64,000 bases of DNA from Leptospiraceae bacterium (GCA_024233835.1 JACKPC010000001.1:1285442-1349441), one strand, 5' to 3'; numbered from the stretch's first letter, positions 2 through 47,679 are shown. A program made the numbers and translations. The notes: generated by a model from the sequence alone, not told the origin.

Positions 2-3000
2 CCTACCGTATCGGGTCTTCTGGGAAGTGGCTTACAGCTTTCCGATGGAACGAATACGATAAGCCCCACAGCCAATGGTAGCTGGGCTTTCCCGGCAAGG
101 GCTTCCGGTCTCAGTTATAACGTGACAGTGGCAACACAGCCAACAAATCCCTGGCAGACCTGCTCAGTTACAAACGGTAGCGGGACTTTAACCGTTTCTG
201 ATGTGACGAATGTAACAGTCAGTTGTGTTACCAACACCTATACGATGGGAGGCACAATCAGTGGTTTTGGTTCGGGAACGGACTTAAGTATAACGGATGG
301 AGCCGGTAATACATTGACCCTGCCTGCAGGAAGCAGCACCTTCACTTTTCCCCTGCGGGATAGTGGCAGTAGCTACAGTGTGACTATTGCGACCCAGCCG
401 ACTTCTCCCTGGCAGACCTGTACGGTGACCAATGGTAGCGGTAATTTAACAAATGCGAATATAACGAATGTAAGTATTAGCTGCACTGTGAATACCTATA
501 CCATGTCGGGTTTTATATCGGGACAGGCAAATACTTCGACTTTAATCATCAATAATGGTACAGCCAATGTGACTCTTACCGGTCAGTCGAGTGACTACAA
601 TTATACGGAAAATCTAAACAGTGGCACTTCGTACAACTATACAATAGTGCAACAACCTCCGGGACAGTACTGTGTATTTGTCATGCAGACCCTACTTTCC
701 GGGACTGTGACAAACTCGAACCTTAACAACTTCGGCATCAACTGTGTGAACGGCTATCTGGTGAGTGGTCATATACAACAAAATCCACCGGCTCCGATTA
801 ATATGCACCTGTATCAGGGAAATGTGACTACCCTTGCGGGTAATGGAGTAACCGCAGGTACAGCCGACGGAACGGGTGCTGCGGGACAATTCAATACACC
901 TTCAGGAATCACATTCGATGGAACCTATTTTTATGTTGCTGATACAGGTAATCATAAGATAAAAAGAATTGATTCGAGTGGAAATGTAACTTCTATAGCA
1001 GGAAATGGAATTGCAGGTAATACCGATGGATCCGGGACTTCCATCTCTTCCTTAAATAGTCCAAGAGGGCTTACTACCGATGGAACCTATCTTTATATTT
1101 CAGAATCAAGTGGTAACAGAATCAAAAGGATGCGAATCTCAAGCGGATACGTGGAGACTCTTGCGGGTGATAATTCCGTTGTCTCACCTGCTGCGTCAAC
1201 TCTTGATGGCATAGGAACAGCGGCAAAGTTCAATACGCCTGCGGGAATTGTGGTAGATGGAAATTCTTTGATTATCGTGGAACGAGGTTCCAATGCTATT
1301 CGAGAATTAAATTTGAATACACTTTCTGTAAGCACACTAACAGTCTCAGGAGCAGCATTAAATCAAGCAGAAGGTATCGCACTTGTTGGGAACTACTTGT
1401 ATATTGCTAATTTAAATAGTCATAATATACTAAAAGTTGATAAAACTTCGGGTGTTTCCGTGGTCCTCGCCGGTGGAGCTGCGGGAGAGGTCGGGTATAT
1501 CGATGCTGTAGGTACCACTGCAAGGTTTAATCATCCACATGGGATTGTATCTGATGAAGTTAATCTTTATATAGCCGATTTTGATAATAACCTGATTCGG
1601 CAGCTAGAAATCAGTAGTGGAAGAGTAACAACTCTTGCCGGTACGGGAACAGGTGGAACATCTACCGATGGAATTGGTATCGCAGCTACTTTTAATAGTC
1701 CCAAATTTATGACCAGTGATGGAAAGAATCTGTATGTTGTCATGCATCATGCTATCCGCAAGCTCACCAACAACGGACTTGTGGGTTACTGGCCGCTTAC
1801 TACAAGTGCTGCTGACCATGCCGGAACAAACAACGGAACTTTATATAATTCGCCCGCTTTTACCGCTGCTGATAGATTTGCTGTGGCAAACTCTGCAATC
1901 ACTTTCAATGGCTCAAACCAATTTATTGAAGGTTCTGACTCCGGTTTGCCTTCAGGAGGAAATCCAAGAACAAGTTGTGCCTGGATAAATCCACAGGCAG
2001 TTATTAATGGACTGAGTCTTGTTTTTACCTATGGAACAAATACAGCTTACGGTGGACATGGTATTGCTATAGCAGGAAATGGAACTAAGTTAACCGGAAT
2101 TATGAGTTCCAATTTTGGTGGTTCTGATTTTACAGCACCTTATAACTTAGCAACAAACCAGTGGACACATATTTGTACTACTTATTCCGGCAGTTCAGCA
2201 GGAAATGTTGTGGGAGTTTATGCAAACGGAAAACTCATAGGACAGACTACAACAGGAAACTGGAATACAACTTTATCCGGTCTAATGCGAATAGGTAGCC
2301 AGATCACTAATGCACAGTATTTTAACGGCAATATTGCCGATGTTCGAATCTACAGCCGTGTGCTGAATGAAGGCGAAATCAACGAGCTGGCACAGAATGC
2401 TGCACCCGCACAGGTAGGTTCTACCTACAGCACAGGGGCAACGGGGCTATTGGCAGACTTCCATCTGGATGGTGGTAGTAACAATAGTAGTGGTGCTATT
2501 CCTGATCTGGGTCTTACGGGTTCAACTGGTGGTAATTTCCTCGGTAAGGATGGTGATGCAAATGGATCACGGATGTTTGATATATCCAGTAGTAATACAC
2601 TTAGCGGAACTACGCTCGGCCTTCCTCTTGGTGGAGCCCCTAGAACATTGTGCACATGGATAAATCCTGTATCTTACCCTCCTCCCGGAGGTGGTATTCC
2701 CGGCTGGTATTTTGCTGCCGGTTATGGTGGAACCAGTACAAGCTCTGCTTTTATGGTAGGTGTTTATAATAACTCAGGAATCATCAATCTAACCCTGGAT
2801 TTTGGAAATGATTCAGTTATGGCAGCCTATAATCCGGCACTGAATACCTGGACTCATGTTTGCGGAGTTTACGATGGCAGCACCGCTTATCTTTATGCTA
2901 ACGGTATGTTGTTGAATTCTGCTGCAAAATCCATCAATACAACAACGGGAAGTTTTACTATTGGAGCAAATACAAGTGGCAGCAGTTTTTTCAATGGAAA

Positions 3001-4405
3001 GATAGACGATGTTCGCATCTATAACAATGCACTCAACCAAACGCAAATCCGCCAACTTGCTACACAGGTTCCGACAGGACTTGTGGCCAGATATGATTTC
3101 AATGGAGACGCGAATGATGTAAGTGGATTTGGTGCTAATGGAACTGTATATGGAGCAACACTGACAAGTGACAGGTATGGAAACAGCAATTCAGCTTATA
3201 ATTTTAACCACAATAATCAAAACTACATTGAGGCTCCTCAACTGTTTTTACCTACCGGTTCAAGTTCCAGAACATTATGTGCTTATATTAGACCTCAAAA
3301 TTTACCTCCTACTGCACCGGATCCTCAAAGAGCTGTTTTATATTATGGCACAGCAACTACCAGCGGTGCCAATGGTTTAATCTTTGCATTTGATTATGAA
3401 GTGGCTGTTGCAGGTTATGCAGATGATTTAAGCTTAACCTATCGAACATCTCAAAATACCTGGAATTTCTTTTGTGGTACCTTTGATGGGTCTACAGCAA
3501 GATTGTATTATAATGGAAGGGAATTAATTAATGGAACAAAATCCTGGAATACGGGAACTGGAAATTTCTTTATTGGTAAAAGCTTAAGTACGGTTTATTT
3601 TAATGGAGATATAGACGATGTTCGCATCTATAATCGTGTCTTAACCGAATCGGAAATCCGTGCTTTAAGCGGCTATCATCCGATGCAGGTGACAAGCTGG
3701 AATCCGACGGTTGCCAGTAGTAGTTTACAGTTCCACGTTGCTGCTGATAGTTTTAGTAACCAGGCCGATAATACTACTGTCGGAAACTGGCCGGATATAA
3801 GCGGAAATGGCTTTTTAGGCACCCAATACAACGGGCCAGTTTTTAGAACTGGAGCTAATGGCTTAAATGGTAAACCGGCGATACAATTTAATGGTACTAA
3901 TCAATATTTTGATTTCGGTGCTCAATCAATAGCTTATAATGGTGCAACAGTATTCGCTGTGGCGAAAAATTCCATTTCTGATTATATTGGTAGACCGATA
4001 TTAAGTTATGAACTTGCTTCCGGAGGTTGTGTGACCAGAGTAAATTTGGAAAAAGATTTCACCAATCCGACAAATTATTATTTTGAAGGGCCGGCAAGTA
4101 GTGCGACAATTTCTGCAACTTTAAATGAATCACTTATATTAACCGGTATTCTTGAAGGAACATCCGCGCCAATTAAATTAGCTAAAAACGGAAACGCAGC
4201 TACTTCTGGAGCAAATGTTTCCCTGAGTGGGAATAATTCGTGTAATTTGCGTGCAGGTGGGAGAACAGACACAGCAGATAGATTTCAGGGACTCATTAGC
4301 GAGATCCTGTTATTTAAAGAGGCACTCGGTGTTCCCGACAAAGACATCGTCGAGTGTTATCTCTCTTCTAAATACAATATCCCTATCGGGCATAGCTGTC
4401 CGTAA
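2..4405 (+). CDS. Very large secreted multidomain protein, 5' partial. The reading frame is open back to the window edge. It has N-terminal Ig-like tandem repeats (TxATQPTxPWQTCxVTNGSG), a 6-blade NHL beta-propeller and 4-5 LamG / concanavalin A-like (Laminin_G_3) domains.
   Basis: The frame upstream of the ORF-track Met at 122 translates as ...LSYNVTVATQP, matching the internal repeat SYSVTIATQP, so the protein is truncated at the window edge. NHL motifs appear as FNTPxGIxxDGxYLYxAD..NxIxRxD, six times. LamG signature D(D/A)VRIY(N/S)RxL(T/N)xxEI appears four times, each preceded by YxF/LxGDxxDxSG. Confidence 0.8.
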   Translation, partial: PTVSGLLGSGLQLSDGTNTISPTANGSWAFPARASGLSYNVTVATQPTNPWQTCSVTNGSGTLTVSDVTNVTVSCVTNTYTMGGTISGFGSGTDLSITDGAGNTLTLPAGSSTFTFPLRDSGSSYSVTIATQPTSPWQTCTVTNGSGNLTNANITNVSISCTVNTYTMSGFISGQANTSTLIINNGTANVTLTGQSSDYNYTENLNSGTSYNYTIVQQPPGQYCVFVMQTLLSGTVTNSNLNNFGINCVNGYLVSGHIQQNPPAPINMHLYQGNVTTLAGNGVTAGTADGTGAAGQFNTPSGITFDGTYFYVADTGNHKIKRIDSSGNVTSIAGNGIAGNTDGSGTSISSLNSPRGLTTDGTYLYISESSGNRIKRMRISSGYVETLAGDNSVVSPAASTLDGIGTAAKFNTPAGIVVDGNSLIIVERGSNAIRELNLNTLSVSTLTVSGAALNQAEGIALVGNYLYIANLNSHNILKVDKTSGVSVVLAGGAAGEVGYIDAVGTTARFNHPHGIVSDEVNLYIADFDNNLIRQLEISSGRVTTLAGTGTGGTSTDGIGIAATFNSPKFMTSDGKNLYVVMHHAIRKLTNNGLVGYWPLTTSAADHAGTNNGTLYNSPAFTAADRFAVANSAITFNGSNQFIEGSDSGLPSGGNPRTSCAWINPQAVINGLSLVFTYGTNTAYGGHGIAIAGNGTKLTGIMSSNFGGSDFTAPYNLATNQWTHICTTYSGSSAGNVVGVYANGKLIGQTTTGNWNTTLSGLMRIGSQITNAQYFNGNIADVRIYSRVLNEGEINELAQNAAPAQVGSTYSTGATGLLADFHLDGGSNNSSGAIPDLGLTGSTGGNFLGKDGDANGSRMFDISSSNTLSGTTLGLPLGGAPRTLCTWINPVSYPPPGGGIPGWYFAAGYGGTSTSSAFMVGVYNNSGIINLTLDFGNDSVMAAYNPALNTWTHVCGVYDGSTAYLYANGMLLNSAAKSINTTTGSFTIGANTSGSSFFNGKIDDVRIYNNALNQTQIRQLATQVPTGLVARYDFNGDANDVSGFGANGTVYGATLTSDRYGNSNSAYNFNHNNQNYIEAPQLFLPTGSSSRTLCAYIRPQNLPPTAPDPQRAVLYYGTATTSGANGLIFAFDYEVAVAGYADDLSLTYRTSQNTWNFFCGTFDGSTARLYYNGRELINGTKSWNTGTGNFFIGKSLSTVYFNGDIDDVRIYNRVLTESEIRALSGYHPMQVTSWNPTVASSSLQFHVAADSFSNQADNTTVGNWPDISGNGFLGTQYNGPVFRTGANGLNGKPAIQFNGTNQYFDFGAQSIAYNGATVFAVAKNSISDYIGRPILSYELASGGCVTRVNLEKDFTNPTNYYFEGPASSATISATLNESLILTGILEGTSAPIKLAKNGNAATSGANVSLSGNNSCNLRAGGRTDTADRFQGLISEILLFKEALGVPDKDIVECYLSSKYNIPIGHSCP

Positions 4406-4463: not shown

Positions 4464-7400
4464 TTATAATTCTCCCTGATACAGGGAGTATATTTCTGCC
4501 TCTGTGAGTTCTCTATTATAAATTCTCACATCATCTATACTTCCGATGAAATAATCAGTATTCACCGGGTCACCGGCAATGTAGAAAGTAGTAGCAGCTG
4601 AGTTAAAATCTTTAGTACTGTTAAATATGGTTGATCCATTTACTATAATTTTTCTGTTGGTTCCGGTATATAGAAAGCAGGTGTGATACCATGTTCCGTT
4701 GGTACAGGAATAGGAATTATACCAGGTTCCATTTAAAATATTTCGATTTAAACCTATCTCAGTGGAAGATAAACGAGCTGCAAAGTTTGCATTACTATTA
4801 TCTCCACTAAAAAAGATGGCACGATTGGTTGCACTTAAAGAGGAGGGTTTAATCCAACCGCAAACAGTACGGGCTTCCGCAGCCGAAGGAAAATGTGCAG
4901 CAGATGTGGTGATCCAATTGGTTCCACTAAAACTGTAGGCTCTGTTGGCTGTGCCGTATCTGTCTGTACTTGTTGTAGGAGTATTTACAGGAGTCCCGTT
5001 GTCGCTAAACCCGTCTCCGGCATACTCATCGGTAAGGCTTCCTGAATTAAAGGGGTAGTAAGCGAGCATTCCCTTATCCGGATCGGCAGAAAGGATTTTA
5101 ATTTCATTCGCAGTCAGGGAGCGATCATAAATTCGAAGTTCATCGATACTTCCATTCATGCCGATTCCTCCGAGGTCAGCTCTGAGACCGATTCTTACTA
5201 CCGATGTGTTAACCGTTCCGGGGCTTATCGTTCCATTTCCATCGGCAACACCATTGATGTAGAGTTGATAGGATTCTGAAGTCTTGACTACCGCCACATG
5301 TGTCCAGGTAGAAGCCGGAATGGTAGCTGTGCTATCTACGTTAAGACCGGTTCCGGTATTAATTAAGAACTGTAATATATTCGTTCCCATTATACGAAAT
5401 TCAACATGGTGTCCGGAAGTTGCATCATGCCAGGCAATAATCTCATCATCGGTTCCGGCTGCTGTCCTGTAGATCCAGGCGGAAATTGTCATATTCGTGG
5501 GTAAACTAAAATGGGTACCGAGACTGATGTAGCTCGAAGTACTTCCATTGAATGTAGCTACTGTAGAAGTATTCGAGTATCGATTGGAACCTAAGGAAAC
5601 CCCCGTTGCGGTTCCATGATTGGCATTAACGCTGGCATCATCATAATTCGAATCAAAAGGATAGTAGGCATATAAATTAGAAAAAGTATATTCTCTTTTT
5701 TGAGTATATAAGGTTTTCTTTCCGCTGAGATCCGAGACGACTATATTAAAGTAATAAGCTTTTTCTGCACTGAGTCCTGTAATATTTGCAGAAGTAGTTC
5801 CTGTATACGTATTAAACAGGGTTCCGAGTGTTTCGGTTGAAGAAAGCGAAGTAAGGCAGGGGTAGGTTGCATAGTAAACCTTATAGCTTAAACTTCCCGC
5901 TGCGGTAGCCAGGTCGGAAGCTGCATTCCAGCTTAAGGTAAGAGAAGTGGATGCCACATTGCTTGTAAATATATATCCGTTGGCTACAGTAGGGTTTGTG
6001 AAATCATATTGAGCAGAGGGAGAACTTTGAACTGCGGTTCCTGCGAGATTATATTGATCTTTGGGGGTGACTTCAAAGCGTATGTATTTACCATCGTCTC
6101 CGGCTACAAGGGTATAGGTAGTATTTGTAGCTCCTGATATAGCAGAACAGGTGCCGCTTGTAGTATCGGTACAGCGATACCACTGGTAGGCATGAGTTCC
6201 GGGAAGATGTCCATCCACATCGTTATAAGTAAAGGTTCCGCTGAGCACAGAGCCAATGTTGCTTCCTCCGCTAAAAGCTACCAAACTGGCAGTTGGAGGG
6301 TTATTGGCAGCTACAGTAACGCTTACTGTATAGTTCTGGGTGCTGGCATCAGCGGCTGTTACCACGTAGCTCAGGGGAGTTGAAAAGTTATTGGCTGTAG
6401 TTCCTGAAACCTGGTTGACTCCACCCACCGTAATGCTACTTCCGGAAATAGAAAAATTGGCTACCAGAGCCGTCACATTGGTGTTGTAAGGAACGGTAAT
6501 TGCGATATTCGTTCCGCTGATAATACCTGTAGCTGTGGGGGAACTGAAACCAAACGATATAATTTCTTTGGCCGATAGACTATTGGTATCTGTAATAGCA
6601 AGACTAAAGGGATTTGTGCTTTCTCCTGCCGAATTTTTAGTAAAAACCAGAAAGTGTGTGGCCCCTGAAGGGATGCTTGTATTGGTATTGAAAGTGTAGC
6701 TGAGGTTTGTACCTGTCGCCGCCAAATCAGTAATATGACTTAACTTCGTGCTACTATTCGTTCCCCAGTAGAGGGCGTAGGAAGTGATATTGGATTCATC
6801 AGAAGCTTTTCCTATAGTTAAAATTCCTCCGATTTTTCCAACAGAAACATCCGAGTCTGAAAAGTTTAAAGAAGAAGCAGTTAGAGTAGGTGGACTGATT
6901 AGATCCGAAATAGCCGTACTGACTCCTGTTGACATTTGAACGGTTCCATTTTTAGTAAAAGCAAGCAGGTGAGTTGCCATTGCGGGAATAGCAGTAGAAG
7001 CTAAGGTATAGCTAATATTTTGATTTGTTTTGGAAAGAATTGCGATGGGGTTTCCAATTATTTCTGTAGCGGAACTTCCAAAATAGACCGCATAGGTTGT
7101 GACATCTGTTTCATCAGAAGCTTTTGTAATAGAAAGATTTCCTGCAATATAACCCTTGTTTCCATCTGTATCGGTGAAGTTGAGGGCTTCAGCCGCATGG
7201 GTCGGAGAAGTAAAAACAACAGGTTTTGCATCGCTTCCATCTTCTCCAAAAGCAGTAACGGTCATGACCATAGTTCCTGAGGTAGCCACAGGAGTTGGTG
7301 GAGGTGTATCTGCTGTAATTGTTTCAGGCAGAGAAACCGAAATTTCACCTAACTCTACTCCTGACTCACTGACTATAGTAACCTTAAAACTTCCCGGATT

Positions 7401-8027
7401 AAGTTTCATTTCATATTGACCGTTTTCATCCGTAAGAAATTTGGCCTGTGTGTCATTAATAAGTTTATTGGATCCACTTGTTTCTTCTCCCTTCGTGTTG
7501 TTACCGGAGACTGCCAGAAGGTATTTGGCACCATTCGGGGGACTGGTTCCGAGGTTGAGCATATATATATAAGAGCTTGCCCCGGTTTTCCAGAGTTTTG
7601 TAATACGGGAGAGTTTTTGGTTTTCGGCAGATGCCCAATAAAGGGAGTAAAAATTTATTTCTGTTTCGTCTACAGCTTTTGCAATTTTCACTGGTCCGGC
7701 AATTTTTCCCTTCGTAGGATCAATGTCCACAAAGTCCAATTTACCCGGAGCTTTTTCACTAACAACGGAAGTTCCACCAGTAATTTCTTTTTTTACAGAG
7801 GTTGTCGTGGATAAACTTCCGGCACTCACATTTAATGAGGCATTCTTTACAGTTTCTCCACCAGGAGAAAGTAAATTACCTTTTATTGAATACACGGGTT
7901 TTGGAGAACTTTTTTGTGTATTAAAAGCGGTGATTCGTATTAAGTTATCCTTGCTACTGCCTTCCGGTAGAAATGGATTACAGTGGATTATGAATAAAAA
8001 AATTATATTGAAAACTATAAATTTCAT
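4464..8027 (-). CDS. Large secreted or lipoprotein adhesin-like protein. It has a signal peptide, three tandem Ig-like repeats of about 85 aa, a BIG-like domain, an Ig-like domain, FN3 and two C-terminal LamG domains.
   Basis: The ORF-track start at 8057 is probably 10 codons too long. An AAGGA RBS precedes the ATG at 8027 (MKFIVFNIIFLFIIHC...). Repeat units contain FxDxDxxKGxIAGxxxIxKAxDExxxTxYAxYxG ... THxLxFTKN. LamG signatures are DELRIYDRSLTANEI and DDVRIYNRELTEAEI. Confidence 0.8.
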   Translation of the reverse strand: MKFIVFNIIFLFIIHCNPFLPEGSSKDNLIRITAFNTQKSSPKPVYSIKGNLLSPGGETVKNASLNVSAGSLSTTTSVKKEITGGTSVVSEKAPGKLDFVDIDPTKGKIAGPVKIAKAVDETEINFYSLYWASAENQKLSRITKLWKTGASSYIYMLNLGTSPPNGAKYLLAVSGNNTKGEETSGSNKLINDTQAKFLTDENGQYEMKLNPGSFKVTIVSESGVELGEISVSLPETITADTPPPTPVATSGTMVMTVTAFGEDGSDAKPVVFTSPTHAAEALNFTDTDGNKGYIAGNLSITKASDETDVTTYAVYFGSSATEIIGNPIAILSKTNQNISYTLASTAIPAMATHLLAFTKNGTVQMSTGVSTAISDLISPPTLTASSLNFSDSDVSVGKIGGILTIGKASDESNITSYALYWGTNSSTKLSHITDLAATGTNLSYTFNTNTSIPSGATHFLVFTKNSAGESTNPFSLAITDTNSLSAKEIISFGFSSPTATGIISGTNIAITVPYNTNVTALVANFSISGSSITVGGVNQVSGTTANNFSTPLSYVVTAADASTQNYTVSVTVAANNPPTASLVAFSGGSNIGSVLSGTFTYNDVDGHLPGTHAYQWYRCTDTTSGTCSAISGATNTTYTLVAGDDGKYIRFEVTPKDQYNLAGTAVQSSPSAQYDFTNPTVANGYIFTSNVASTSLTLSWNAASDLATAAGSLSYKVYYATYPCLTSLSSTETLGTLFNTYTGTTSANITGLSAEKAYYFNIVVSDLSGKKTLYTQKREYTFSNLYAYYPFDSNYDDASVNANHGTATGVSLGSNRYSNTSTVATFNGSTSSYISLGTHFSLPTNMTISAWIYRTAAGTDDEIIAWHDATSGHHVEFRIMGTNILQFLINTGTGLNVDSTATIPASTWTHVAVVKTSESYQLYINGVADGNGTISPGTVNTSVVRIGLRADLGGIGMNGSIDELRIYDRSLTANEIKILSADPDKGMLAYYPFNSGSLTDEYAGDGFSDNGTPVNTPTTSTDRYGTANRAYSFSGTNWITTSAAHFPSAAEARTVCGWIKPSSLSATNRAIFFSGDNSNANFAARLSSTEIGLNRNILNGTWYNSYSCTNGTWYHTCFLYTGTNRKIIVNGSTIFNSTKDFNSAATTFYIAGDPVNTDYFIGSIDDVRIYNRELTEAEIYSLYQGEL

Positions 8028-8209
8028 GATTGAGTTTTCCTTTGAATTGTATAGCATATAAGACTATACTTTTTTTTATATTTCTATTTTTTTGACAATT
8101 ATTTTTAAAACTAAAATGCCCTAAATATAAATATGATTCGACACCTTAATGCTCGTAGAAAAATATTAGTTATCAACTGATTTATGAATTCAGGTGTTAA
8201 GGGATAGAA

Positions 8210-17922: not shown

Positions 17923-19272
17923 ATGGTAAAAGAAAAGCAATCAAAAAATAGTCTTTTACAGCATCCTATTTTAGAAATAAAAGTGGAAAATATTCTCCTT
18001 ATGAATAACCCTGAAATGGAAAGAATGGATCTTGAAAATTTTATACCTGAATCTTTAAACAGCATCATCAACGAAGAGTTGTATGTTCCTCATTACCAGC
18101 CTATAGTGAACGCTATCAATCGCAAAATACTGGGATATGAGGTATTGGGAAGGCTTTACTCGATAACCCATGATCAATTTCTTTCTTTAGGTCCTTATTT
18201 TCACGGAAAGCGTTTTAATCTTACCCAAAAAGTCCAGGTGGATAGGATTATTCGGGAAAAAGCCATTAAATACCTGAAGAATTCCGGCAATAATACCAAA
18301 CTCTTTTTTAATTTTATGCCTAATATTCTCTCCAGTGTGCACCAGGATGAGCTTTTAGACCCCGGACGTTTCCACCTGATTCAGCTTATTGAGAAGTATG
18401 AGATTGACAGGAAAAATATAGTAATTGAAATTACGGAAGATGAATTCGATGGAAAGACCGAAAGACTTCTGATGATGGTAAACATTTTCCGCAATTATGG
18501 TTTTAAAATTGCCATTGATGATATGGGAGCAGGGTTTTCTAATCTGGAAAGAATAGGTTATATACACCCGGATATCATCAAAGTAGACATAAGAATTATG
18601 CGAGAAAGCCTGAACCGAACTTCTTTTCGGCACGTTTTAGATGCTATTTCAGAAATGTCTTTAAAACTCGGGAGTGAGCTTTTATTTGAGGGAATAGAAA
18701 CCGAAAAAGAGTTAACCCTGGCCCTTTCCATGGGAGCAAACCTTCTTCAGGGTTTTTATTTTTCCAAGGCCATGTCGGAGTTTCAGAACACTTCCCTCTT
18801 TGCTGATGATTTAAGCATTATTTTGGAAAAATTTGGTGGAATACGTTTCCTGGAGCTCGTAGAGGATTATTCTACTCAACAGGATCTGGTGGATCACCTG
18901 AGTTCAGTTCTGGAATCTATTGAAATTTTAGAGACAGAAACCAGTCAGGTTCATGTATCCCGGGTAGAAAAAATTCTTCCGAGTTTACCATCCGGTATTC
19001 TTGAGGTTTTTCTGGTTGATATGCACGGCTACCAGTTATCTCCCAGTTATGTTCATAAAGAAGATAACTCCTGGGAAGAAGATTTTAAACATATTGGGAA
19101 TAATTACGCCTGGAAACCCTATTTCATGAGACATAAGGCCGAGGCATATTATTTTAAAAAGAAATGGGGGGTAACCAAGCCATTTTATGATATGGAACAT
19201 CAGCTCCAATATGTGATTTTCACGTTTAACTTAAATGCGAATTTAATTCTAATCGCAAAAGTTAAATGCTAA
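17923..19272 (+). CDS. EAL-domain c-di-GMP phosphodiesterase with an uncharacterised C-terminal region of about 160 aa
   Basis: EAL catalytic motifs are conserved: YQPIV, EVLGR, ITEDE, IAIDDMGAGFSNL, IKVD, EGIETE, LQGFYFSKA. Confidence 0.8.
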   Translation: MVKEKQSKNSLLQHPILEIKVENILLMNNPEMERMDLENFIPESLNSIINEELYVPHYQPIVNAINRKILGYEVLGRLYSITHDQFLSLGPYFHGKRFNLTQKVQVDRIIREKAIKYLKNSGNNTKLFFNFMPNILSSVHQDELLDPGRFHLIQLIEKYEIDRKNIVIEITEDEFDGKTERLLMMVNIFRNYGFKIAIDDMGAGFSNLERIGYIHPDIIKVDIRIMRESLNRTSFRHVLDAISEMSLKLGSELLFEGIETEKELTLALSMGANLLQGFYFSKAMSEFQNTSLFADDLSIILEKFGGIRFLELVEDYSTQQDLVDHLSSVLESIEILETETSQVHVSRVEKILPSLPSGILEVFLVDMHGYQLSPSYVHKEDNSWEEDFKHIGNNYAWKPYFMRHKAEAYYFKKKWGVTKPFYDMEHQLQYVIFTFNLNANLILIAKVKC

Positions 19273-19312: not shown

Positions 19313-19327
19313 TTAGAATGATTCTAA
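19313..19327. promoter_or_regulatory. Perfect 7-1-7 inverted repeat TTAGAAT-g-ATTCTAA about 30 nt upstream of the sufC start. It is a candidate Fur/PerR-family operator.
   Basis: The palindrome is seen directly. It has the same architecture as the PerR box TTATAATnATTATAA. Confidence 0.3.
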
Positions 19328-19354: not shown

Positions 19355-20092
19355 TTGCCAGAATTACTGAAGATTGTTAACCTACATGCGAATATAGAGG
19401 GTAAGGAAATTTTAAAAGGGGTCAATTTAGAGATTCAGGCGGGAGAGACCCACGCTATTATGGGGAAAAACGGTTCCGGCAAGAGTACCCTTTCCAATAT
19501 TATCCTGGGACATCCTTCTTATAAGATTACAGGAGGTGATATTCTTTTTAAAGGTGAGTCCATACTTTCTCTCAGCACCGATGAAAGGGCTAAAAAAGGT
19601 ATTTTCTTAAGCTTTCAATATCCTACGGCCATCCCCGGAGTCAATGTAGCCAATTTCCTGCGAACCATTTTACGAGCCAAAAGGGGTGCTGACATACCGG
19701 TTCGAGAGTTTCGTAAAGAACTGAACGAAGCAATGGAGGCCTTGCACATGGACAAATCATTTACTTCCCGTTATGTGAATGATGGTTTTTCCGGTGGAGA
19801 AAAAAAGCGGAATGAAATTTTACAACTCAGTCTCCTACAACCCTCGCTCAGTATACTCGATGAGCTGGATTCCGGTCTGGACATAGACGCTTTAAAGCAG
19901 GTCTGTGAAGGCATTAACCGTTATAAAAATGAAAATAATGCTCTTCTTCTCATTACCCACTACCAGAGGATGCTGAATTATGTGATTCCTGATTTTATCC
20001 ACGTTTTTGTAGATGGAAAAATTGTCATGAGTGGCGATAAACATCTGGCTCTTGAATTGGAAGAAAAAGGTTACGATTGGGTGAGTAAATAA
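19355..20092 (+). CDS. sufC: Fe-S cluster assembly ATPase SufC
   Basis: Walker [13 protein letters not shown] signature [13 protein letters not shown], SufC-like length and N-terminus. Confidence 0.9.
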
Positions 20093-20102
20093 GGAGACCC
20101 GG

Positions 20103-21332
20103 ATGAGTACAGCAACCCTAAAAAATCCTTCCTTACATGCTGAATTAGCAGTTCTCTTTCAAAGAACGGAAGAGATAAAGGAACCTTTCTGGTTGAAAGA
20201 ATTCCGAAGAAATGCTTTTCATGTTTTACAAAGGGTTCCGATTCCTAATGCAAGCCTGGAATCCTGGAGGAAGCTTTCCTTATCTAACTTAAAACTGGAA
20301 AAGTTGATCCAGCACTGGAAGTATTCAGAAACTTATTTTACGGAAAACAGAGGAAATTGTCTGAAAAGGTTCTCTGAATTGAATCCCGGAGAAGAAGAAT
20401 TTCTTAGGAAAAAACTCGATTTTCTTCTGGAATACTATTCGGAGAGTTTTTTTAGCTTACTTAATTTTAGTTTTTTCACCTCGACCTGTTTTTTGGAACT
20501 TTCTGAAAAGAATCATATAGCCGGTATTTTTTCAATTTTGGAAAATCATTCCGAAGCCCCCTTTCTTCCTTTAAATATCATTAAAATTGGAAAGTTTGCG
20601 AAAGCAGTAGTGAAAGAAGAAACCAGACTTCCTGCGAATGAAGATTTAGAACTTTACTGTCCTTTTACGGCTCTTTTCTTAGAAGATTCTGCTAATATAG
20701 ACTTCATAAGCTTAGAACAACTTTCCGATTCAAGCTTTCACTTTAAAACCTTTTATTCTTCCCAGGAACAAAATTCCCATTTAAATCTTTCCTACTTTAA
20801 CCTGGATGGATATAGAGGGAAAACCTTTTTTGATTCGGACCTCAGGGGAGAAGGGGCAAATATTTTTTCTTTTGCTGCGATTGGCACCATACAACGCGAA
20901 GTGCAGGATGTGGAATTCAGTATTCGTCATCTGAAAAGTTATACAACAAGCAAGCTTTTGATGAAGGCAGTCGTGCGGGATAAGTCGCACCATATTTTTA
21001 CCGGAAAGCTCTGGATTCCTGCCGGCTTAAAACATGTACAGGCCAGTCAATTAAATAATAACCTGATTTTGGACCCAAAAGCCCGTGCTGAATCCATTCC
21101 CTGTCTGGAAGTTTTTTCGGAAGATGTGAGTTGCTCTCATGGTGCTACTATGGGAGAGATAAAAGAAGAGGAATTATTTTACTTAATGTCGAGAGGACTC
21201 AATGAAGAAGAAGCCCGCGCCCTGATACTGGAGGGATTTTTAGCTTCTATAACCGACAAAATTCCGAATGAAAAAATTTCCTCCGATATACTTGAGTCCT
21301 TACTCGAAAAATTGAACTCTAAGGGTAGATGA
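20103..21332 (+). CDS. sufD: Fe-S cluster assembly protein SufD (SufBD family)
   Basis: The C-terminal SufBD beta-helix region includes GATMGEIKEEELFYLMSRGLNEEEARALILEGF. It sits between sufC and sufS. Confidence 0.75.
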   Translation: MSTATLKNPSLHAELAVLFQRTEEIKEPFWLKEFRRNAFHVLQRVPIPNASLESWRKLSLSNLKLEKLIQHWKYSETYFTENRGNCLKRFSELNPGEEEFLRKKLDFLLEYYSESFFSLLNFSFFTSTCFLELSEKNHIAGIFSILENHSEAPFLPLNIIKIGKFAKAVVKEETRLPANEDLELYCPFTALFLEDSANIDFISLEQLSDSSFHFKTFYSSQEQNSHLNLSYFNLDGYRGKTFFDSDLRGEGANIFSFAAIGTIQREVQDVEFSIRHLKSYTTSKLLMKAVVRDKSHHIFTGKLWIPAGLKHVQASQLNNNLILDPKARAESIPCLEVFSEDVSCSHGATMGEIKEEELFYLMSRGLNEEEARALILEGFLASITDKIPNEKISSDILESLLEKLNSKGR

Positions 21333-21333
21333 A

Positions 21334-21645
21334 ATGGCATTTGTAAAACTGGCAGAGACAACAGATTTTGAAGATATAAAAATGAAAATTGTGGAAACAA
21401 AATTTTTTCGTGTTGGCATTTTTAAAAACACAGATACCTATATTGCTTTTGAAGATGTCTGCACTCATGATGGAGAACCCATTTCAGAAGGGGAACTCGA
21501 CGATTGTATCCTGACCTGTCCCAGACATTTTGCCCAGTTTGACTTAAAAACTGGAGAAGCTCTCTGTATGCCGGCTACAGAACCCATAAAACTTTTCCCG
21601 GTTCGGGTGAATAGAACCGATATTGAAGTAGACCTGGAGGATTAA
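21334..21645 (+). CDS. Rieske [2Fe-2S] ferredoxin-like protein embedded in the suf operon
   Basis: CTH...(17 aa)...CPRH, the Rieske CxH/CxxH pair. There is a 1-nt gap to sufD and to sufS. Confidence 0.7.
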
Positions 21646-21646
21646 T

Positions 21647-22888
21647 ATGAGTCTTGACCCTTACAGACTGAGAACCGATTTCCCTATTCTTTCTACCAAA
21701 ATGAACGGAAAACCTCTGGTTTTTCTCGATAGTGCAGCCAGTTCCCAGAAACCTTTTCAGGTTATCGATGCCCTGGATCGGTATTACAAAGAGGAAAATG
21801 CGAATATTCACCGCGGAATTTATTATCTATCCCAAAAAGCGACCGAACTCTACGAAAAAACGAGGATTAAAGTTGCCGACTTCATAAATGCTCGCTGTGC
21901 AAAGGTTATTATTTTTACAAGAAATGCCACCGAAAGCATCAATATGGTAGCTCAGGCCTGGGGAAGGGAGAATATCGGTCGGGGCGATGAAATCGTTTTG
22001 AATGAACTCGAACACCATTCCAACCTCGTTCCCTGGCACATGCTGGCAAAAGAAAAAGGAGCCGTCTTACGGTTTATACCCTTAAAAGAAGATTCAAGTC
22101 TGGATTACAGTCAATTAGATGAAATTATCAACTATCGAACCAAACTGGTAGCTATATCTCAGATGTCCAATGTTACCGGAACCATGCATGACATTAAAAC
22201 GGTCGTAAAAAAAGCTCATTCCGTTGGAGCCAAAGTCCTTTTAGACGGAGCCCAGGGAGTCTGTCACATACCGGTGAATGTTCAGGAATTGGATATAGAT
22301 TTTTATGCTTTTTCTGCCCATAAGATGCTCGGTCCAACCGGTGTGGGAGTTCTTTACGGAAAAGAAAATGTGTTGGAAAGAATGTCCCCCTGGATGGGAG
22401 GGGGAGATATGATACTCGATGTAGAAAAAGACCGTTCTACCTATGCCGACCTTCCCGCTAAACTGGAAGCCGGAACGCCTAATATAGCCGGAGTTATTGC
22501 TTTTGCCGAGGCGATTGACTATCTTGAGGCGGTTGGACTTGAAAATATTCAAAAACATGAGCAAAAACTTACCCAATATGCCCTCGAAGAACTTTATAAG
22601 TTCGGAGGAATTGAATTATACGGAGTGGAAGATCTTTCTAAAAGAGGAGGGGTCATTTCCTTTAATATGGAAGGGGTTCATCCGCATGATGTGGGTAGTA
22701 TTTTAGACGAACAGGGAATTGCCATTCGAGTGGGACATCATTGCTGTCAGCCTTTTATGAAGAAATGCAAAATATCCGGTACGGCCAGATTGAGTTTCTA
22801 TCTGTACAATACCCTTGAAGATATAGATGCCTTTATTCATGGTTTAAAAACGGTGAAGGAGATCTTCGGCCGTGTCCTTAGAAAGTAA
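21647..22888 (+). CDS. sufS: Cysteine desulfurase SufS (class V aminotransferase, group II)
   Basis: PLP-lysine region [17 protein letters not shown] and the active-site Cys loop RVGHHCCQP. Confidence 0.9.
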
Positions 22889-23291
22889 GCTTTATTCTGA
22901 TTCTTTATTAGATATTTATAAGAATCTGGTATATAGAAAAGCAATGGAAAGCTATACTCACTTCAGCTCGAAAAAGAATCAGCTTTGTGGTGATGAAATA
23001 ACCGTTTATTTTACACTTCTCGAAAATAGAATAATCGATGCCTCATTTCAGGCAGAGGCCTGTATGCTCTGCACGGTTTCCGGAGAGATTCTTTGCCGGG
23101 AATCTATTGGAAAAACTTTTAAGGAACTAAACGAGATAAGTAAAAATTTGAAAGCTTATTTTTCAAACAGGCTGGAACTCGACCTGGAGCTCTCCCGGTT
23201 TCGGGCCCTGCTTACGGCCAGGCCTTATTTGAATCGGCATCGTTGTGTTTTTTTGGCCTGGGAAACTATAGAAGAAGTATTTCATACGTAG
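22872..23291 (+). CDS. sufU: SufU/IscU-like (NifU N-terminal family) sulfur-transfer or scaffold protein
   Basis: [24 protein letters not shown] and [11 protein letters not shown] align with B. subtilis SufU NPTCGD / EGCSIS / KCATLSW. Confidence 0.65.
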
Positions 23292-23306
23292 AAATGGAGA
23301 TATAAT

Positions 23307-23627
23307 ATGCTAATAGAACCTACAGGGGAACTGGAAAAGAAAGTTTTTGAAGCTATAAAACCTATAGAAGACCCGGAATTATATATTTCTTTGGTGGATC
23401 TGGGTTTGATTTATGAAATTCGCGTCGAAGGAAAAAAAGCTTTTATAGACATGACTCTTACCAGTATGGGCTGTCCGGCCGGCCCTTACCTGAAAACATC
23501 TATAGAAAATGAGGTTTTACGATTGGAGGAAATCGAGGAAGTGGAAGTGGAAGTTGTCTGGTCTCCTCCCTGGGATCCAAGAACCATGGCCTCCGAAGAA
23601 GCCAGAATGGATATGGGAATATTTTAA
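23307..23627 (+). CDS. sufT: DUF59 / SufT-like Fe-S assembly factor
   Basis: DPELYISLVDLGLIY...MTLTSMGCPAGP is a typical MIP18/DUF59 signature. Confidence 0.6.
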   Translation: MLIEPTGELEKKVFEAIKPIEDPELYISLVDLGLIYEIRVEGKKAFIDMTLTSMGCPAGPYLKTSIENEVLRLEEIEEVEVEVVWSPPWDPRTMASEEARMDMGIF

Positions 23628-38401: not shown

Positions 38402-39568
38402 ATGTTTCTTATTAAATTGAAGACACATCCTTTCTTTTCTCTCGGCTTTCGTTCTATGTTTTTTTTCGCTGCCCTTTCTGCGTTTATTATGCCGGCTCTC
38501 TGGGTTTCCTTTTATACCGGGAAAACAGCCTTCCCCGGTGGAATCTTTTCACCTATGGACTGGCACGGTTTCGAGATGTATTCGGGTTTCGCTTCTGCCC
38601 TGGTGGCAGGCTTTTTGCTTACGGCTTCTGCTAATTGGTCGGGCAGTCCTGCCGTATCAGGTTATCCTCTTTTCTTTCTCAGCCTGTTCTGGCTTTTAGA
38701 AAGGATTATCTTTTTGATACCTCATCTACCGTATCCTGTTTATGTAATTTCTTCTCTGCCTTTTCCTCTCTTATTTTTAGTTATATTAACGATTCAATTA
38801 AAAACAAACACGAAAAATCGTAACATTTTTCTTCCCTGGCTTATCCTCTTCTTTTTTGCCAAGTTTTTATATATATATTCCGGAATATATAAAGATGCTT
38901 TCAGACTCTTATTTGCGAAAGAGCTATTTGTATCTTCTCTCCGAATTATTATTGTTGTGATTACAGGAAGAATTATTCCCTTTTTCATGGAAAAACGAAT
39001 TGGCTTTCGTCCTAAGGTTCCGCTCTTACTTGAATATGGAAGCATCATTTCCGTTTCTTTTCTTATCTTTGCAAATATAACAGTGCTTCCGGCTTTTACA
39101 GAAGCAATTTTATATTTATTCGCTGTACTTATGAACTCTATAAGATTTTTCTACTGGAGACCTTTGAAGACCATTAAAGTTCCGATTCTTCTAATCTTAC
39201 ATATTGGTTATTTATGGCTTATCTTACACCTTCTTTTAAGTTTTTATGGAAAAGCTTTTCAAAATCCGGGTCCGGTTACTCTGCATTTTTTTTCTACAGG
39301 AGCTCTCGGTACTTTTGCCATAGGAATGATGACGAGAGTTGCTCTCGGTCACAGCGGCCGCATTATACACGCGGATAAATGGATTCTGTTTATGTATGCC
39401 TGCGTGCAAATTGGAGCTATACTCAGAACTATCATTCCTCTTTTCTTTAACGAAATCTATTTTAAGAGTTTACACTATTCGAGTGGTTTCTGGACTCTTG
39501 CTTTTATGATTTACTTGATTCGCTTTACACCCATTCTTTATAAGAAACGAATGGATGCAGAATCATGA
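38402..39568 (+). CDS. nnrS: NnrS-family membrane protein (haem-copper protein linked to NO response)
   Basis: About 12 TM helices, conserved His-containing helices, and the C-terminal RVALGHSGR motif typical of NnrS. Confidence 0.55.
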   Translation: MFLIKLKTHPFFSLGFRSMFFFAALSAFIMPALWVSFYTGKTAFPGGIFSPMDWHGFEMYSGFASALVAGFLLTASANWSGSPAVSGYPLFFLSLFWLLERIIFLIPHLPYPVYVISSLPFPLLFLVILTIQLKTNTKNRNIFLPWLILFFFAKFLYIYSGIYKDAFRLLFAKELFVSSLRIIIVVITGRIIPFFMEKRIGFRPKVPLLLEYGSIISVSFLIFANITVLPAFTEAILYLFAVLMNSIRFFYWRPLKTIKVPILLILHIGYLWLILHLLLSFYGKAFQNPGPVTLHFFSTGALGTFAIGMMTRVALGHSGRIIHADKWILFMYACVQIGAILRTIIPLFFNEIYFKSLHYSSGFWTLAFMIYLIRFTPILYKKRMDAES

Positions 39569-44923: not shown

Positions 44924-46801
44924 CTAAAACTTTCGACTCTTCTTATAGATTTCTTCAAATTGTTTTACCAGTTCCGGATGTTCTTTAGATAGGTTATTTT
45001 CTTCTTTTGGATCTTTTTCTATATCGAAGAGTTTTACCTGGTTTTGTGTGAACTTTTTAATGTATTTCCATTTTCCCATACGAATTCCAAATTCTCTCCG
45101 GATCATATAGGAAATCATAGTTTCGAAAGACTTGGCACTGTCTCCCCAAATAGGCACTCCTTCAAATTGAGGAGCCAGGGAAATCCCGGAAATTTGGAAA
45201 AGAGTAGGCATAAGATCCACAAGACCTGCAATTCTCTTGCTTCCTTTGTAGACCATATATTTGGTTCTGGACATATTTTTTCCAATATAAAAGAATAGGG
45301 GAACTCGAACCTGAGATTCATAAACCGAAGTTTGGTGATAAAAAGAACCGGGATGTTCTTCAAATGCCTCTCCGTGATCCGCTGTTATGGCTACAACCAG
45401 ATCATCCATCAGCTTGTGTTCTTTGAAAGAATCAAAGAGTTCTCGAACGGCATCGTCTACTCTGTAGATGGCATTGTCATAGGCATTGACCATGGGCTTC
45501 CAGGGCGGTGCTGCCCGGTACCGGGGCAGGGGTTGGAAAACTTCATATTTTTTCGGAACCTCATAGCTATAATGAGCCGAGTGTAAATGAACAATCAAGA
45601 AAAATGGCCTGGGTAGATCCATTAACCATTTCTTAACTTCCTGTACATTAAAGCCATCATCAACACCATAGTTATAGGTAGCTTCTTTGTTATGCCCCCA
45701 GATATAATGTTTCTCTGAAACTTTACCTGCGTGAAAAACTCGTTTTACACTTTTCTCCTGGAACAAACGAATGATAGAAGCCCAGTGCAGGTCCATAGAA
45801 CTCGAAACTGCAACGGTATAGCCTGCATTCTCAACCTGCTTAAAGATTCCCCAGTTATAATTTGTTTTATCCATTCTCGGATATTTACTCAGGATAAGAG
45901 AAGGAAATGATTTGGCAGTGGCATTTGCCTGGGCATAACAATAATCTACTTTTATAAAGTCATTGGACATGGATTTTATAAAGGGAGTTGTGTTTCGATG
46001 ATAACCGTAATCCGGGAGGTGATCGGCACGTATCGAGTCCATAAGAATCAATACTATATTTGGCTTTGGACCTGGGAAGCTTGTTTTATCAATAAAAACT
46101 TCCGGACGAACATCCGTACTCCCGCTTTCACTTGCATCCAGTTTTAAATGTCCGAGTCCCGCAACATAAATATGGGATGCGATTGTCCCGGAAGTCTTCA
46201 TTTCTTTTGCTATAGTAGGATTGGCAAGACTTTTGTTATAGAAAAAAATACTTATACATATAAAAAGAAAGAAGAAAGCCAGGCCAAGTTGATGAAAGAT
46301 AAAATTTCTTTTCTCTTGGAAATCTTTAGTGAATTTTTTAGATAAGTAAACATAAAGTGCAAAAACTGAAAACCAGGTGAGGTTACTTAAAACTACTTGG
46401 ATAATAAGACCTCTCTGCGCTTCTCCTATTCCTGTTTTAATCATATGACTTACTTCTCCACGGCTTTGTAAAAAAAGTTCCAGTCCTTCTTTACTAATAT
46501 ATACGCCATACTGAAAAAAATGAAAAAACTCACTCGTCGATATAATTGTATGTAAGAGAAGAAGCAAAAATGAAAAAATGATAAGGTAGCGTGAAGAAAA
46601 AAATACCAGAAAAAAAGCAAATAGTAATAGGTAATAGGCTATACTTAAACTTACCGGGAAATACAGGGATGGTAAACTTACCTTATGAAAAGATAGTAAT
46701 TCTATCCATTGCCAGTATTCATAGGATAAGGCCAGAAATAGTAAAATAAGAATCAATAATATATAGGTAATATTTAGCTTTTTCATGTATGCTCCATACA
46801 C
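44924..46801 (-). CDS. Membrane-anchored sulfatase / LTA-synthase family (alkaline-phosphatase superfamily) protein
   Basis: 5 N-terminal TM helices. The periplasmic domain has ILMDSIRADHL and ITADHGEAF. Confidence 0.7.
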   Translation of the reverse strand: MYGAYMKKLNITYILLILILLFLALSYEYWQWIELLSFHKVSLPSLYFPVSLSIAYYLLLFAFFLVFFSSRYLIIFSFLLLLLHTIISTSEFFHFFQYGVYISKEGLELFLQSRGEVSHMIKTGIGEAQRGLIIQVVLSNLTWFSVFALYVYLSKKFTKDFQEKRNFIFHQLGLAFFFLFICISIFFYNKSLANPTIAKEMKTSGTIASHIYVAGLGHLKLDASESGSTDVRPEVFIDKTSFPGPKPNIVLILMDSIRADHLPDYGYHRNTTPFIKSMSNDFIKVDYCYAQANATAKSFPSLILSKYPRMDKTNYNWGIFKQVENAGYTVAVSSSMDLHWASIIRLFQEKSVKRVFHAGKVSEKHYIWGHNKEATYNYGVDDGFNVQEVKKWLMDLPRPFFLIVHLHSAHYSYEVPKKYEVFQPLPRYRAAPPWKPMVNAYDNAIYRVDDAVRELFDSFKEHKLMDDLVVAITADHGEAFEEHPGSFYHQTSVYESQVRVPLFFYIGKNMSRTKYMVYKGSKRIAGLVDLMPTLFQISGISLAPQFEGVPIWGDSAKSFETMISYMIRREFGIRMGKWKYIKKFTQNQVKLFDIEKDPKEENNLSKEHPELVKQFEEIYKKSRKF

Positions 46802-47679
46802 TAAGAATGAAATGAAAGAAAGTCTATAATGATAACTATATTGATTGCAAAAAGATGTACAATACTATAGAAAAAGAATTTTTTTGCCAGCGCTTTGGTT
46901 TGTTTTTTATATAAATCAATCGACATATACAACATGTATAAGGATAGTACGATAGAAAAACCTAAATACAAGAAGCCCACTCGATTAGTTGTAAAATAAA
47001 AACCGATACAACAGGCAATATATAAGAGGGTGTATTTTAAAATTTCACGGGTGGTGATGGCAACTCCCTTAATAACGGGCATCATAGGGAAGTTAGCTGC
47101 ATCGTAATCTTCTTTTAGAAAAATTGCAAGGGCCCAGAAATGAGGAGGAGTCCAAAAGAAAATGATAAGAAAAAGTATCCAGCCGGGAAGGGGGAGGCTA
47201 TTTGTGCTGGCAGCATAACCAATAAGAGGACCCACGCAACCGGCAATGCCTCCGATAACAATATTCTGATCCGTTCTGGGTTTTAGCAAAATAGTATATA
47301 TGAAAATGTAAAACAACATCGATACAAAAGCGCAAATAGCAGTTAAGAGGTTTACATAATAATATAAAAGAAAAAAAGAAGATACAATAAACAAGAAGGC
47401 AACTATAGCAATTGTAGTCGGACGTATATCACCGCTCGGAAGTGGCCGGTTTTTTGTTCTCTCCATTTTTGCATCCAGATCTTTCTCTATATACTGATTC
47501 AACATAAAAGATGCAGAGGACATTAAAAAAGTTCCAAAAAGAACAATGGAAATAAAACCGGCACCGGGTCGTGTATTGGAACCAAGATAAATACCGGGTA
47601 AAACGGTAATCAGGACGAGAGAAGACACTCTCGGTTTTAGAAGTTTATTCCAGATAGAGATATAACGTAACATAATCAA
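46801..47679 (-). CDS. ctaB: Protohaem IX farnesyltransferase (haem O synthase)
   Basis: UbiA-family motifs NQYIEKDLDAKMERTKNRPLPSG and FFWTPPHFWAL. Confidence 0.85.
   Translation of the reverse strand: MIMLRYISIWNKLLKPRVSSLVLITVLPGIYLGSNTRPGAGFISIVLFGTFLMSSASFMLNQYIEKDLDAKMERTKNRPLPSGDIRPTTIAIVAFLFIVSSFFLLYYYVNLLTAICAFVSMLFYIFIYTILLKPRTDQNIVIGGIAGCVGPLIGYAASTNSLPLPGWILFLIIFFWTPPHFWALAIFLKEDYDAANFPMMPVIKGVAITTREILKYTLLYIACCIGFYFTTNRVGFLYLGFSIVLSLYMLYMSIDLYKKQTKALAKKFFFYSIVHLFAINIVIIIDFLSFHS

Follow-up and report, generated by a model that had tools for sequence, protein, structure and literature searches.

The stretch of DNA examined here (the window) is a 64,000-nucleotide (nt) segment, one strand, from an uncultured Leptospiraceae bacterium (GCA_024233835.1, JACKPC010000001.1:1285442-1349441). 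At positions 19355-23627 it carries a SUF-type iron-sulfur (Fe-S) assembly cluster with the order sufC-sufD-Rieske-sufS-sufU-sufT and no sufB. This region is probably the main operon of a two-locus SUF system typical of Leptospiraceae, with a Rieske-type ferredoxin as accessory. The pathway resembles the Gram-positive type, combining SufS-SufU with SufBC2D and SufT. SufB is not lost: in this family its gene lies at another site, most often just behind the peroxiredoxin gene ahpC. The layout is real without being new. Since the split of sufB from the other suf genes is already published for Leptospira interrogans (PMC7567364), the window represents a new, deep-branching member of a known arrangement, and its gene order is an ordinary, family-wide one. 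The fresh parts are the breadth of the association between the Rieske gene and suf genes, sufT among them, and a PerR-like box common to the two loci.

The suf operon and the location of sufB

According to the list of open reading frames (ORFs) of the window, six genes are tightly packed on the + strand. The same six were obtained in independent gene calls on identical metagenome contigs. The features, with protein lengths in amino acids (aa), are:

19313-19327, no strand assigned: perfect 7-1-7 palindrome TTAGAATGATTCTAA, candidate Fur-family (PerR-like) operator, its end 27 nt before the sufC start
19355-20092, + strand: sufC, Fe-S assembly ATPase, 245 aa, TTG start preceded by a GGGAGG ribosome-binding site
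20103-21332, + strand: sufD, SUFBD-family scaffold partner of SufB, 409 aa
21334-21645, + strand: Rieske-type [2Fe-2S] ferredoxin gene, 103 aa
21647-22888, + strand: sufS, type II cysteine desulfurase, 413 aa
22872-23291, + strand: sufU-like gene, zinc-dependent sulfur-transfer protein, 139 aa, GTG start
23307-23627, + strand: sufT, DUF59-only protein, last gene, 106 aa
23624-24172, - strand: convergent ORF past sufT, overlapping the DUF59 stop by 4 nt

The Rieske ORF lies exactly 1 nt from sufD and 1 nt from sufS, and sufS and sufU overlap by 17 nt. Because of these 1-nt gaps and this overlap the six genes must be co-transcribed, a prediction made from their spacing. The operon ends at sufT, since a convergent gene follows and runs into the DUF59 stop. 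No + strand terminator was detected after sufT in a promoter/terminator scan, and no plasmid match for the region was obtained by megablast.

SufC scores 350.6 bits with TIGR01978 (cut-off 212.8) and also matches PF00005, as expected for the ATPase of a SufBC2D-type system. SufS reaches 613.6 bits with TIGR01979 (cut-off 475) and 494.9 bits with PF00266. The SufU-like protein obtains 77 bits with TIGR01994, under the cut-off of 92.5. Its PDB matches include B. subtilis SufU (1xjs, 5xt5) and T. thermophilus 2qq4, and its C-G-D motif, a Cys and C-terminal Cys positions align with SufU/IscU-type structures. A SufS together with a SufU carrying the Cys/Asp/Cys/Cys zinc site corresponds to the Gram-positive type of sulfur mobilisation. 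The product of the last gene matches PF01883 over residues 11-83 of 106 (65.6 bits, cut-off 23.5) and scores 89 and 88 bits with TIGR02945 (SUF_assoc) and TIGR03406 (SufT), both under the cut-offs; consisting of one DUF59 domain and encoded among suf genes, it is a SufT. For all of these proteins the sequences leave no doubt about the fold. The window shares the sufC-sufD-sufS-sufU order, and a SufU-type rather than a SufE-type relay, with the sufCDSUB clusters of Gram-positive bacteria (B. subtilis, S. mutans). However, the latter end with sufB, whereas the window cluster ends with sufT, has its sufB unlinked and carries the Rieske gene between sufD and sufS.

The 409-aa protein might have been either SufD or a SufB-like paralog. 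It scores 214 bits with the SufD model TIGR01981 (cut-off 222) versus 110 bits with the SufB model (cut-off 346). It was aligned with SufB and SufD of E. coli and of spirochaetes. It carries Cys and His at the positions of E. coli SufD C358 and H360, within the motif S-C-S-H-G-A-T; the conserved H360 belongs to the SufB-SufD interface. It has Asn at the position of SufB C405 and Gly at that of E434, and lacks the SufB sulfur-relay residues C254, Q285, W287 and K303. For what each residue does we follow a study of SufBC2D from E. coli (bioRxiv 10.1101/2022.03.29.486248). Judged by profile scores and aligned residues, the 409-aa protein is a true SufD and not a SufB, so that SufB is needed from elsewhere.

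No sufB was found in the window: the sufD gene is all that tblastn matches with three queries, the SufD of the window, SufB of E. coli and a Leptospiraceae SufB. Neither sufE, sufA nor ahpC was found there by tblastn. Most of the other ORFs of at least 150 aa were scanned with Pfam and correspond to ordinary chromosomal genes; they include no second SUFBD_core and no Fe-S, Fur-family or ferredoxin-reductase gene. sufB is thus absent for at least 19 kb upstream and at least 40 kb downstream of the cluster. The initial annotation had described a six-gene cluster closed by sufT with no sufB in the window and had asked for a profile comparison of the 409-aa protein; the ORF list, the profiles and tblastn agree with this description on all points.

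A system in which SufC and SufD alone (e.g. as SufC2D2), perhaps aided by the Rieske protein, build clusters would account for 64 kb devoid of sufB around an otherwise complete cluster. This is very improbable. The window SufD has no equivalents of C254, Q285, W287, K303, C405 and E434, and a SufD-only scaffold was rejected on this residue analysis. Moreover, SufB genes with 77-89% identity to a Leptonemataceae query are present throughout Leptospirales, one Leptospirales SufB co-occurs with the exact window strain in three samples, and L. interrogans possesses a bona fide isolated SufB.

The nearest relatives of the Rieske protein are found in uncultured Leptospiraceae/Spirochaetota (64-66% identity) and in Leptospira species (50-56%). 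In L. borgpetersenii JB197 the gene order is that of the window, sufC-sufD-Rieske-sufS-sufU-sufT, and no sufB occurs within 10 kb on either side; identity to the window proteins amounts to 56% for the Rieske protein and to about 36% for SufD. A scan of one genome per GTDB species with an alignment of Rieske homologues gave at least 579 confirmed relatives. For annotation of the best 80 loci, the Suf proteins of the window and SufB, SufD, SufE and SufA of E. coli served as tblastn queries. All 10 independent Leptospira/Leptospiraceae loci among the 80 show the gene order of the window and have no sufB within 10 kb on either side. Sister lineages keep sufB: one locus of Leptonemataceae (L024) and one of Spirochaetaceae (L084) read sufB-sufC-sufD-Rieske. 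A separate sufB thus characterises Leptospiraceae at the level of the family. The cluster, which had been called atypical, is so relative to model organisms but not within Leptospiraceae, where its layout is the standard one and not peculiar to the window.

With a Leptonemataceae SufB as query, many Leptospirales SufB proteins were recovered, the closer matches being 73-92% identical. In L. ryugenii sufB follows ahpC with 18 nt between them. One SufB of 472 aa (P0192, 'Leptospiraceae bacterium') is encoded on ahpC-sufB-rlmN contigs from SRR23493592, ERZ27248703 and SRR23493597. The first two samples also yield contigs 100% identical to the window suf region and the third carries an identical Rieske protein; the G+C content of the P0192 contigs resembles that of the window. 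In the alignment P0192 keeps the equivalents of E. coli SufB C254, Q285, W287, K303, C405 and E434. From sample co-occurrence and matching G+C we strongly infer that P0192 is the SufB of this organism, and with it that a SufB is available to the SufBC2D system.

A second candidate, P0191 from another Leptospiraceae metagenome-assembled genome (MAG), was discarded, none of its samples overlapping the window-bearing ones; in its locus sufB stands beside an unknown gene and IDH, without ahpC. At L092:9352-12061 (GCA_020440865.1), the neighbors of sufB are two unannotated genes (191 and 214 aa) and not ahpC, and the box described below precedes it. The ahpC-sufB pairing is therefore not universal in Leptospiraceae.

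The same split is seen in L. interrogans, with a suf cluster devoid of sufB (LIMLP_14560-14580) and an isolated, H2O2-induced sufB (LIMLP_05960/LIC11220) adjoining ahpC (LIMLP_05955) (Zavala-Alvarado et al. 2020, PMC7567364). In that species the response to H2O2 involved sufB only and not the suf cluster, and the Rieske gene goes unmentioned in the report (0 occurrences) (PMC7567364).

The suf-linked Rieske ferredoxin

The 103-aa protein encoded between sufD and sufS consists of a single Rieske domain (PF00355, 52.8 bits, cut-off 20.3). Its ligands, C43-x-H45 ... C62-x-x-H65, are invariant in 36 homologues sharing 39-66% identity, as is a family signature around them (...-x-A-x-F and L-C-M-P-A-T-E-P). 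The CxH...CxxH motif in a single-domain protein of about 100 aa places it among Rieske-type ferredoxins, and it is predicted to bind a cluster. Among solved structures it comes closest to the soluble electron-transfer ferredoxins of ring-hydroxylating dioxygenases, TodB (3dqy), NdoB (2qpz) and BphF (1fqt/2e4p), with E values from 1e-14 to 1e-11; size, fold family and ligands are common to all. Unlike these, the window protein has no cognate oxygenase or reductase and possesses its own conserved signature.

Among the 80 nearest genomic homologues of this protein, 77 have a suf gene no more than 1.5 kb away and 57 adjoin sufT directly. They are distributed over about ten phyla: Planctomycetota, Poribacteria, Chloroflexota, Eisenbacteria, Gamma- and Betaproteobacteria, Verrucomicrobiota, Bacillota, Tectimicrobiota, Vulcanimicrobiota and Spirochaetota. 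A Planctomycete homologue (P0048, Thalassoglobus) and locus L039 are not linked to suf genes. The orthologues in the suf clusters of Planctomycetota, Poribacteria, Chloroflexota, Eisenbacteria and Gammaproteobacteria share 40-66% identity and identical ligand motifs. In these clusters sufB is adjacent and the Rieske gene usually neighbors sufT, whereas in Leptospiraceae it stands between sufD and sufS. It is translationally coupled in Leptospira, overlapping sufD by 4 nt in locus L003. Conservation and linkage of this extent indicate that the Rieske gene is a genuine, ancient and widespread SUF accessory. The initial annotation had seen a Rieske protein inserted between sufD and sufS with 1-nt gaps on either side, and had made its case depend on conservation of the ORF. 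The gaps and the conservation are borne out. The insertion is not, as the gene belongs to an ancestral group of suf accessories spanning several phyla.

Adjacency to sufT in those 57 of 80 loci, outside Leptospiraceae, suggests that the Rieske protein and SufT form a functional pair. Natural fusions of Rieske and DUF59/SufT domains are on record (the 'S7' architecture; Mashruwala et al. 2016, PMC4982691). They link the same two domains, which in the window are encoded by separate genes with sufS and sufU between them. The loci outside Leptospiraceae (L015-L085, e.g. L016:10001-10621 and L069:10001-10646) usually have Rieske and sufT as the last two genes after sufC-sufB-sufD. Streptomyces presumably has the order sufR-B-D-Rieske-C-S-U-T.

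Where SUF-type Fe-S assembly takes its electrons from is still unsettled, and a ferredoxin whose gene is conserved inside suf operons across many phyla obviously suggests itself as the donor. The initial annotation had proposed an electron donor or a sensor dedicated to Fe-S assembly, which is a reasonable idea. By analogy with Fdx of the ISC system, a donor role is plausible for the Rieske protein. In isc operons Fdx is likewise a small ferredoxin encoded among Fe-S assembly genes, and its electron-supply role is the one proposed here. However, the two folds are unrelated: Fdx is of the adrenodoxin type with 4 Cys, the window protein of the Rieske type with 2 Cys and 2 His. In this scheme the Rieske ferredoxin would be a dedicated SUF accessory working with SufT. 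It would most likely deliver electrons, either for persulfide reduction or for the reductive coupling of [2Fe-2S] to [4Fe-4S] clusters, as Fdx does in ISC.

Three other roles were considered. The database name of the protein, 'non-heme iron oxygenase ferredoxin subunit', and its best NCBIfam matches (HcaC and AndAb) would suit an unrelated aromatic-ring dioxygenase ferredoxin that happened to land in the operon. All these matches fall under the cut-offs (HcaC, 84 bits for a cut-off of 113 and 80 bits for one of 150; AndAb, 70 bits for 150). No oxygenase or reductase gene lies nearby, 77 of the 80 nearest homologues in about ten phyla reside in suf clusters, and the gene is translationally coupled in Leptospira (L003). 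The protein therefore does not qualify as a dioxygenase ferredoxin component of the HcaC/AndAb/TodB kind. This origin is scarcely credible, being effectively refuted by the gene-neighborhood survey, and the database name is misleading.

The protein could also be a sensor or regulator whose His-ligated, redox- and pH-sensitive cluster reports oxidative, nitric oxide (NO) or iron stress, or the Fe-S supply, and modulates SufBCD or SufS. Its conservation and suf linkage would fit a sensor equally well, the suf genes appear stress-regulated, and NO and oxidants are known to attack Rieske clusters. However, this small protein carries no DNA-binding or signalling domain beside its Rieske domain and its nearest characterised relatives are all electron carriers, which makes a sensor unlikely.

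Quite unlikely too, and slightly more so, is a carrier or privileged client acting with SufT, in which a transient [2Fe-2S] cluster would be passed on with no electron transfer. The frequent adjacency of sufT and the existence of Rieske-DUF59 fusions favor it, and SufT acts in the maturation of Fe-S proteins under high demand (PMC4982691). Against it, Rieske clusters of this fold are normally stable, buried redox centres in solved structures. To our knowledge no Rieske protein of the carrier type has been described.

The electron-donor role, if true, matters more than the layout of the window, and the claim would rest on the whole orthologue group. Leptospira includes genetically tractable species and relies on SUF as its stress-relevant Fe-S system, which opens the question to direct tests in this genus.

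A palindrome common to the two suf loci

The palindrome upstream of sufC, TTAGAATGATTCTAA, has no other exact match in the 64-kb window. The corresponding box, TTAGAATnATTcTAA, recurs before sufC, with one mismatch at most, in five further non-pathogenic Leptospiraceae loci (L006:1356, L010:187, L012:8050, L014:7942 and L079:2076). It also precedes ahpC-sufB or sufB in three cases (L097:489, L106:5364 and L092:9929), which are the ahpC-sufB contig of P0192, ahpC-sufB of L. ryugenii and the isolated sufB of the other Leptospiraceae MAG. In all, nine suf, sufB or ahpC promoters carry it, six before sufC (including the window) and three before (ahpC-)sufB, while chance alone would give about 0.06 exact matches over the 437 kb inspected. 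The box is conserved while the flanking bases vary. Its presence before both sufC and (ahpC-)sufB in non-pathogenic Leptospiraceae is new here.

The box is a 7-1-7 inverted repeat with an AATnATT core, which is the form of Fur-family operators, and binding of such a regulator is predicted. Each half-site differs by one base from the PerR consensus TTATAATnATTATAA (PMC11631912). In S. mutans, PerR represses sufCDSUB through a PerR box (PMC11631912). These features suggest that one Fur-family repressor coordinates the split suf loci as a single regulon through TTAGAATnATTcTAA. The shared box would offer a simple explanation for the coordination of a split operon, and provides a candidate Fur-family operator in a group, Leptospira, where such operators are hard to find.

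The palindrome could instead be the site of another regulator (e.g. Rrf2/IscR-like or SufR-like) or an AT-rich promoter element. The window has no linked regulator gene, the sequence is AT-rich in an AT-rich genome, and the autoregulatory sites of Leptospira PerRA are reported to diverge from canonical boxes (PMC8638967). We regard this as possible but doubtful. The 7-1-7 symmetry with its AATnATT core is a Fur-family hallmark, the half-sites are one base from the PerR consensus, and the box is conserved where its flanks are not and stands before ahpC, a classic PerR target.

With a PerR-like operator, the two loci could work as follows. A Fur-family repressor acting on the shared TTAGAATnATTcTAA would keep them in step, and peroxide or iron stress would induce both. 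In this organism sufB would follow ahpC and be preceded by TTAGAATCATTATAA. SufB would join SufC and SufD in the usual SufBC2D scaffold, to which SufS and SufU would feed sulfur. The broadest form of the proposal is that the suf-linked Rieske protein, found in hundreds of genomes of about ten phyla, is a dedicated SUF electron donor working with SufT, and that a PerR-like TTAGAATnATTcTAA regulon joins the split suf loci of Leptospiraceae. We put this combination forward tentatively, as a possibility that may well not hold in full.

Several observations weigh against this picture of the operon, its accessory and its regulation. The pathogenic Leptospira loci L003, L007, L008, L011 and L013 lack the box in front of sufC, and a study of L. 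interrogans reported finding no canonical PerR/Fur boxes (PMC8638967). The promoter scan detected no sigma-70-like + strand site upstream of sufC. SufD, SufU and SufT score under the NCBIfam equivalog cut-offs. P0192 was assigned by sample co-occurrence and its G+C content of 39-40%, and not by a shared contig. The window contains no ferredoxin reductase or other obvious redox partner of the Rieske protein among most ORFs of at least 150 aa, and no experimental study of any suf-linked Rieske protein was found in the literature.

Because the pathogenic sufC loci have no box and canonical ones were reported missing from L. interrogans, the regulatory inference is limited to part of the family; in this respect the window, with its PerR-like box upstream of sufC, differs from pathogenic Leptospira. 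The missing box agrees with two reports on L. interrogans, one of an H2O2 response confined to sufB and not shared by the suf cluster (PMC7567364), the other of canonical boxes not being found (PMC8638967).

The five loci L003, L007, L008, L011 and L013 (pathogenic/intermediate) exhibit another conserved stretch, TTTCCTATTGATCTCTC..TACAAAAAAAAACACTGG, about 100-200 nt upstream of sufC, which may be another regulatory element or a small RNA. Locus L014 (CAMCZP010000025.1) is titled 'Leptospira interrogans serovar Manilae'. Its suf cluster is nearer to that of uncultured Leptospiraceae than to that of pathogens (SufC 372 bits versus about 345) and it has the PerR-like box. The label looks wrong.

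Genomic neighborhood

Just upstream of sufC lies a gene for an EAL-domain protein (cyclic-di-GMP phosphodiesterase-like; 17923-19272). It is syntenic in L006, L012 and L013, where it was recognised by its C-terminal coding sequence. Since this synteny extends to distant Leptospiraceae, the suf neighborhood is old.

At the beginning of the window, two convergent genes (122-4405, + strand; 4464-8057, - strand) encode proteins of 1427 and 1197 aa with repeated Laminin_G_3/ConA-like lectin domains, one of which also carries NHL repeats. This stretch has a G+C content of 0.42-0.45 versus 0.38 for the window. Downstream of the suf cluster and unrelated to it are an NnrS gene (38402-39568; a haem/copper membrane protein linked to NO stress) and a haem O / haem A synthase pair (46801-48602; UbiA-type and CtaA). 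The NnrS and haem O/A synthase genes show an aerobic respiratory lifestyle.

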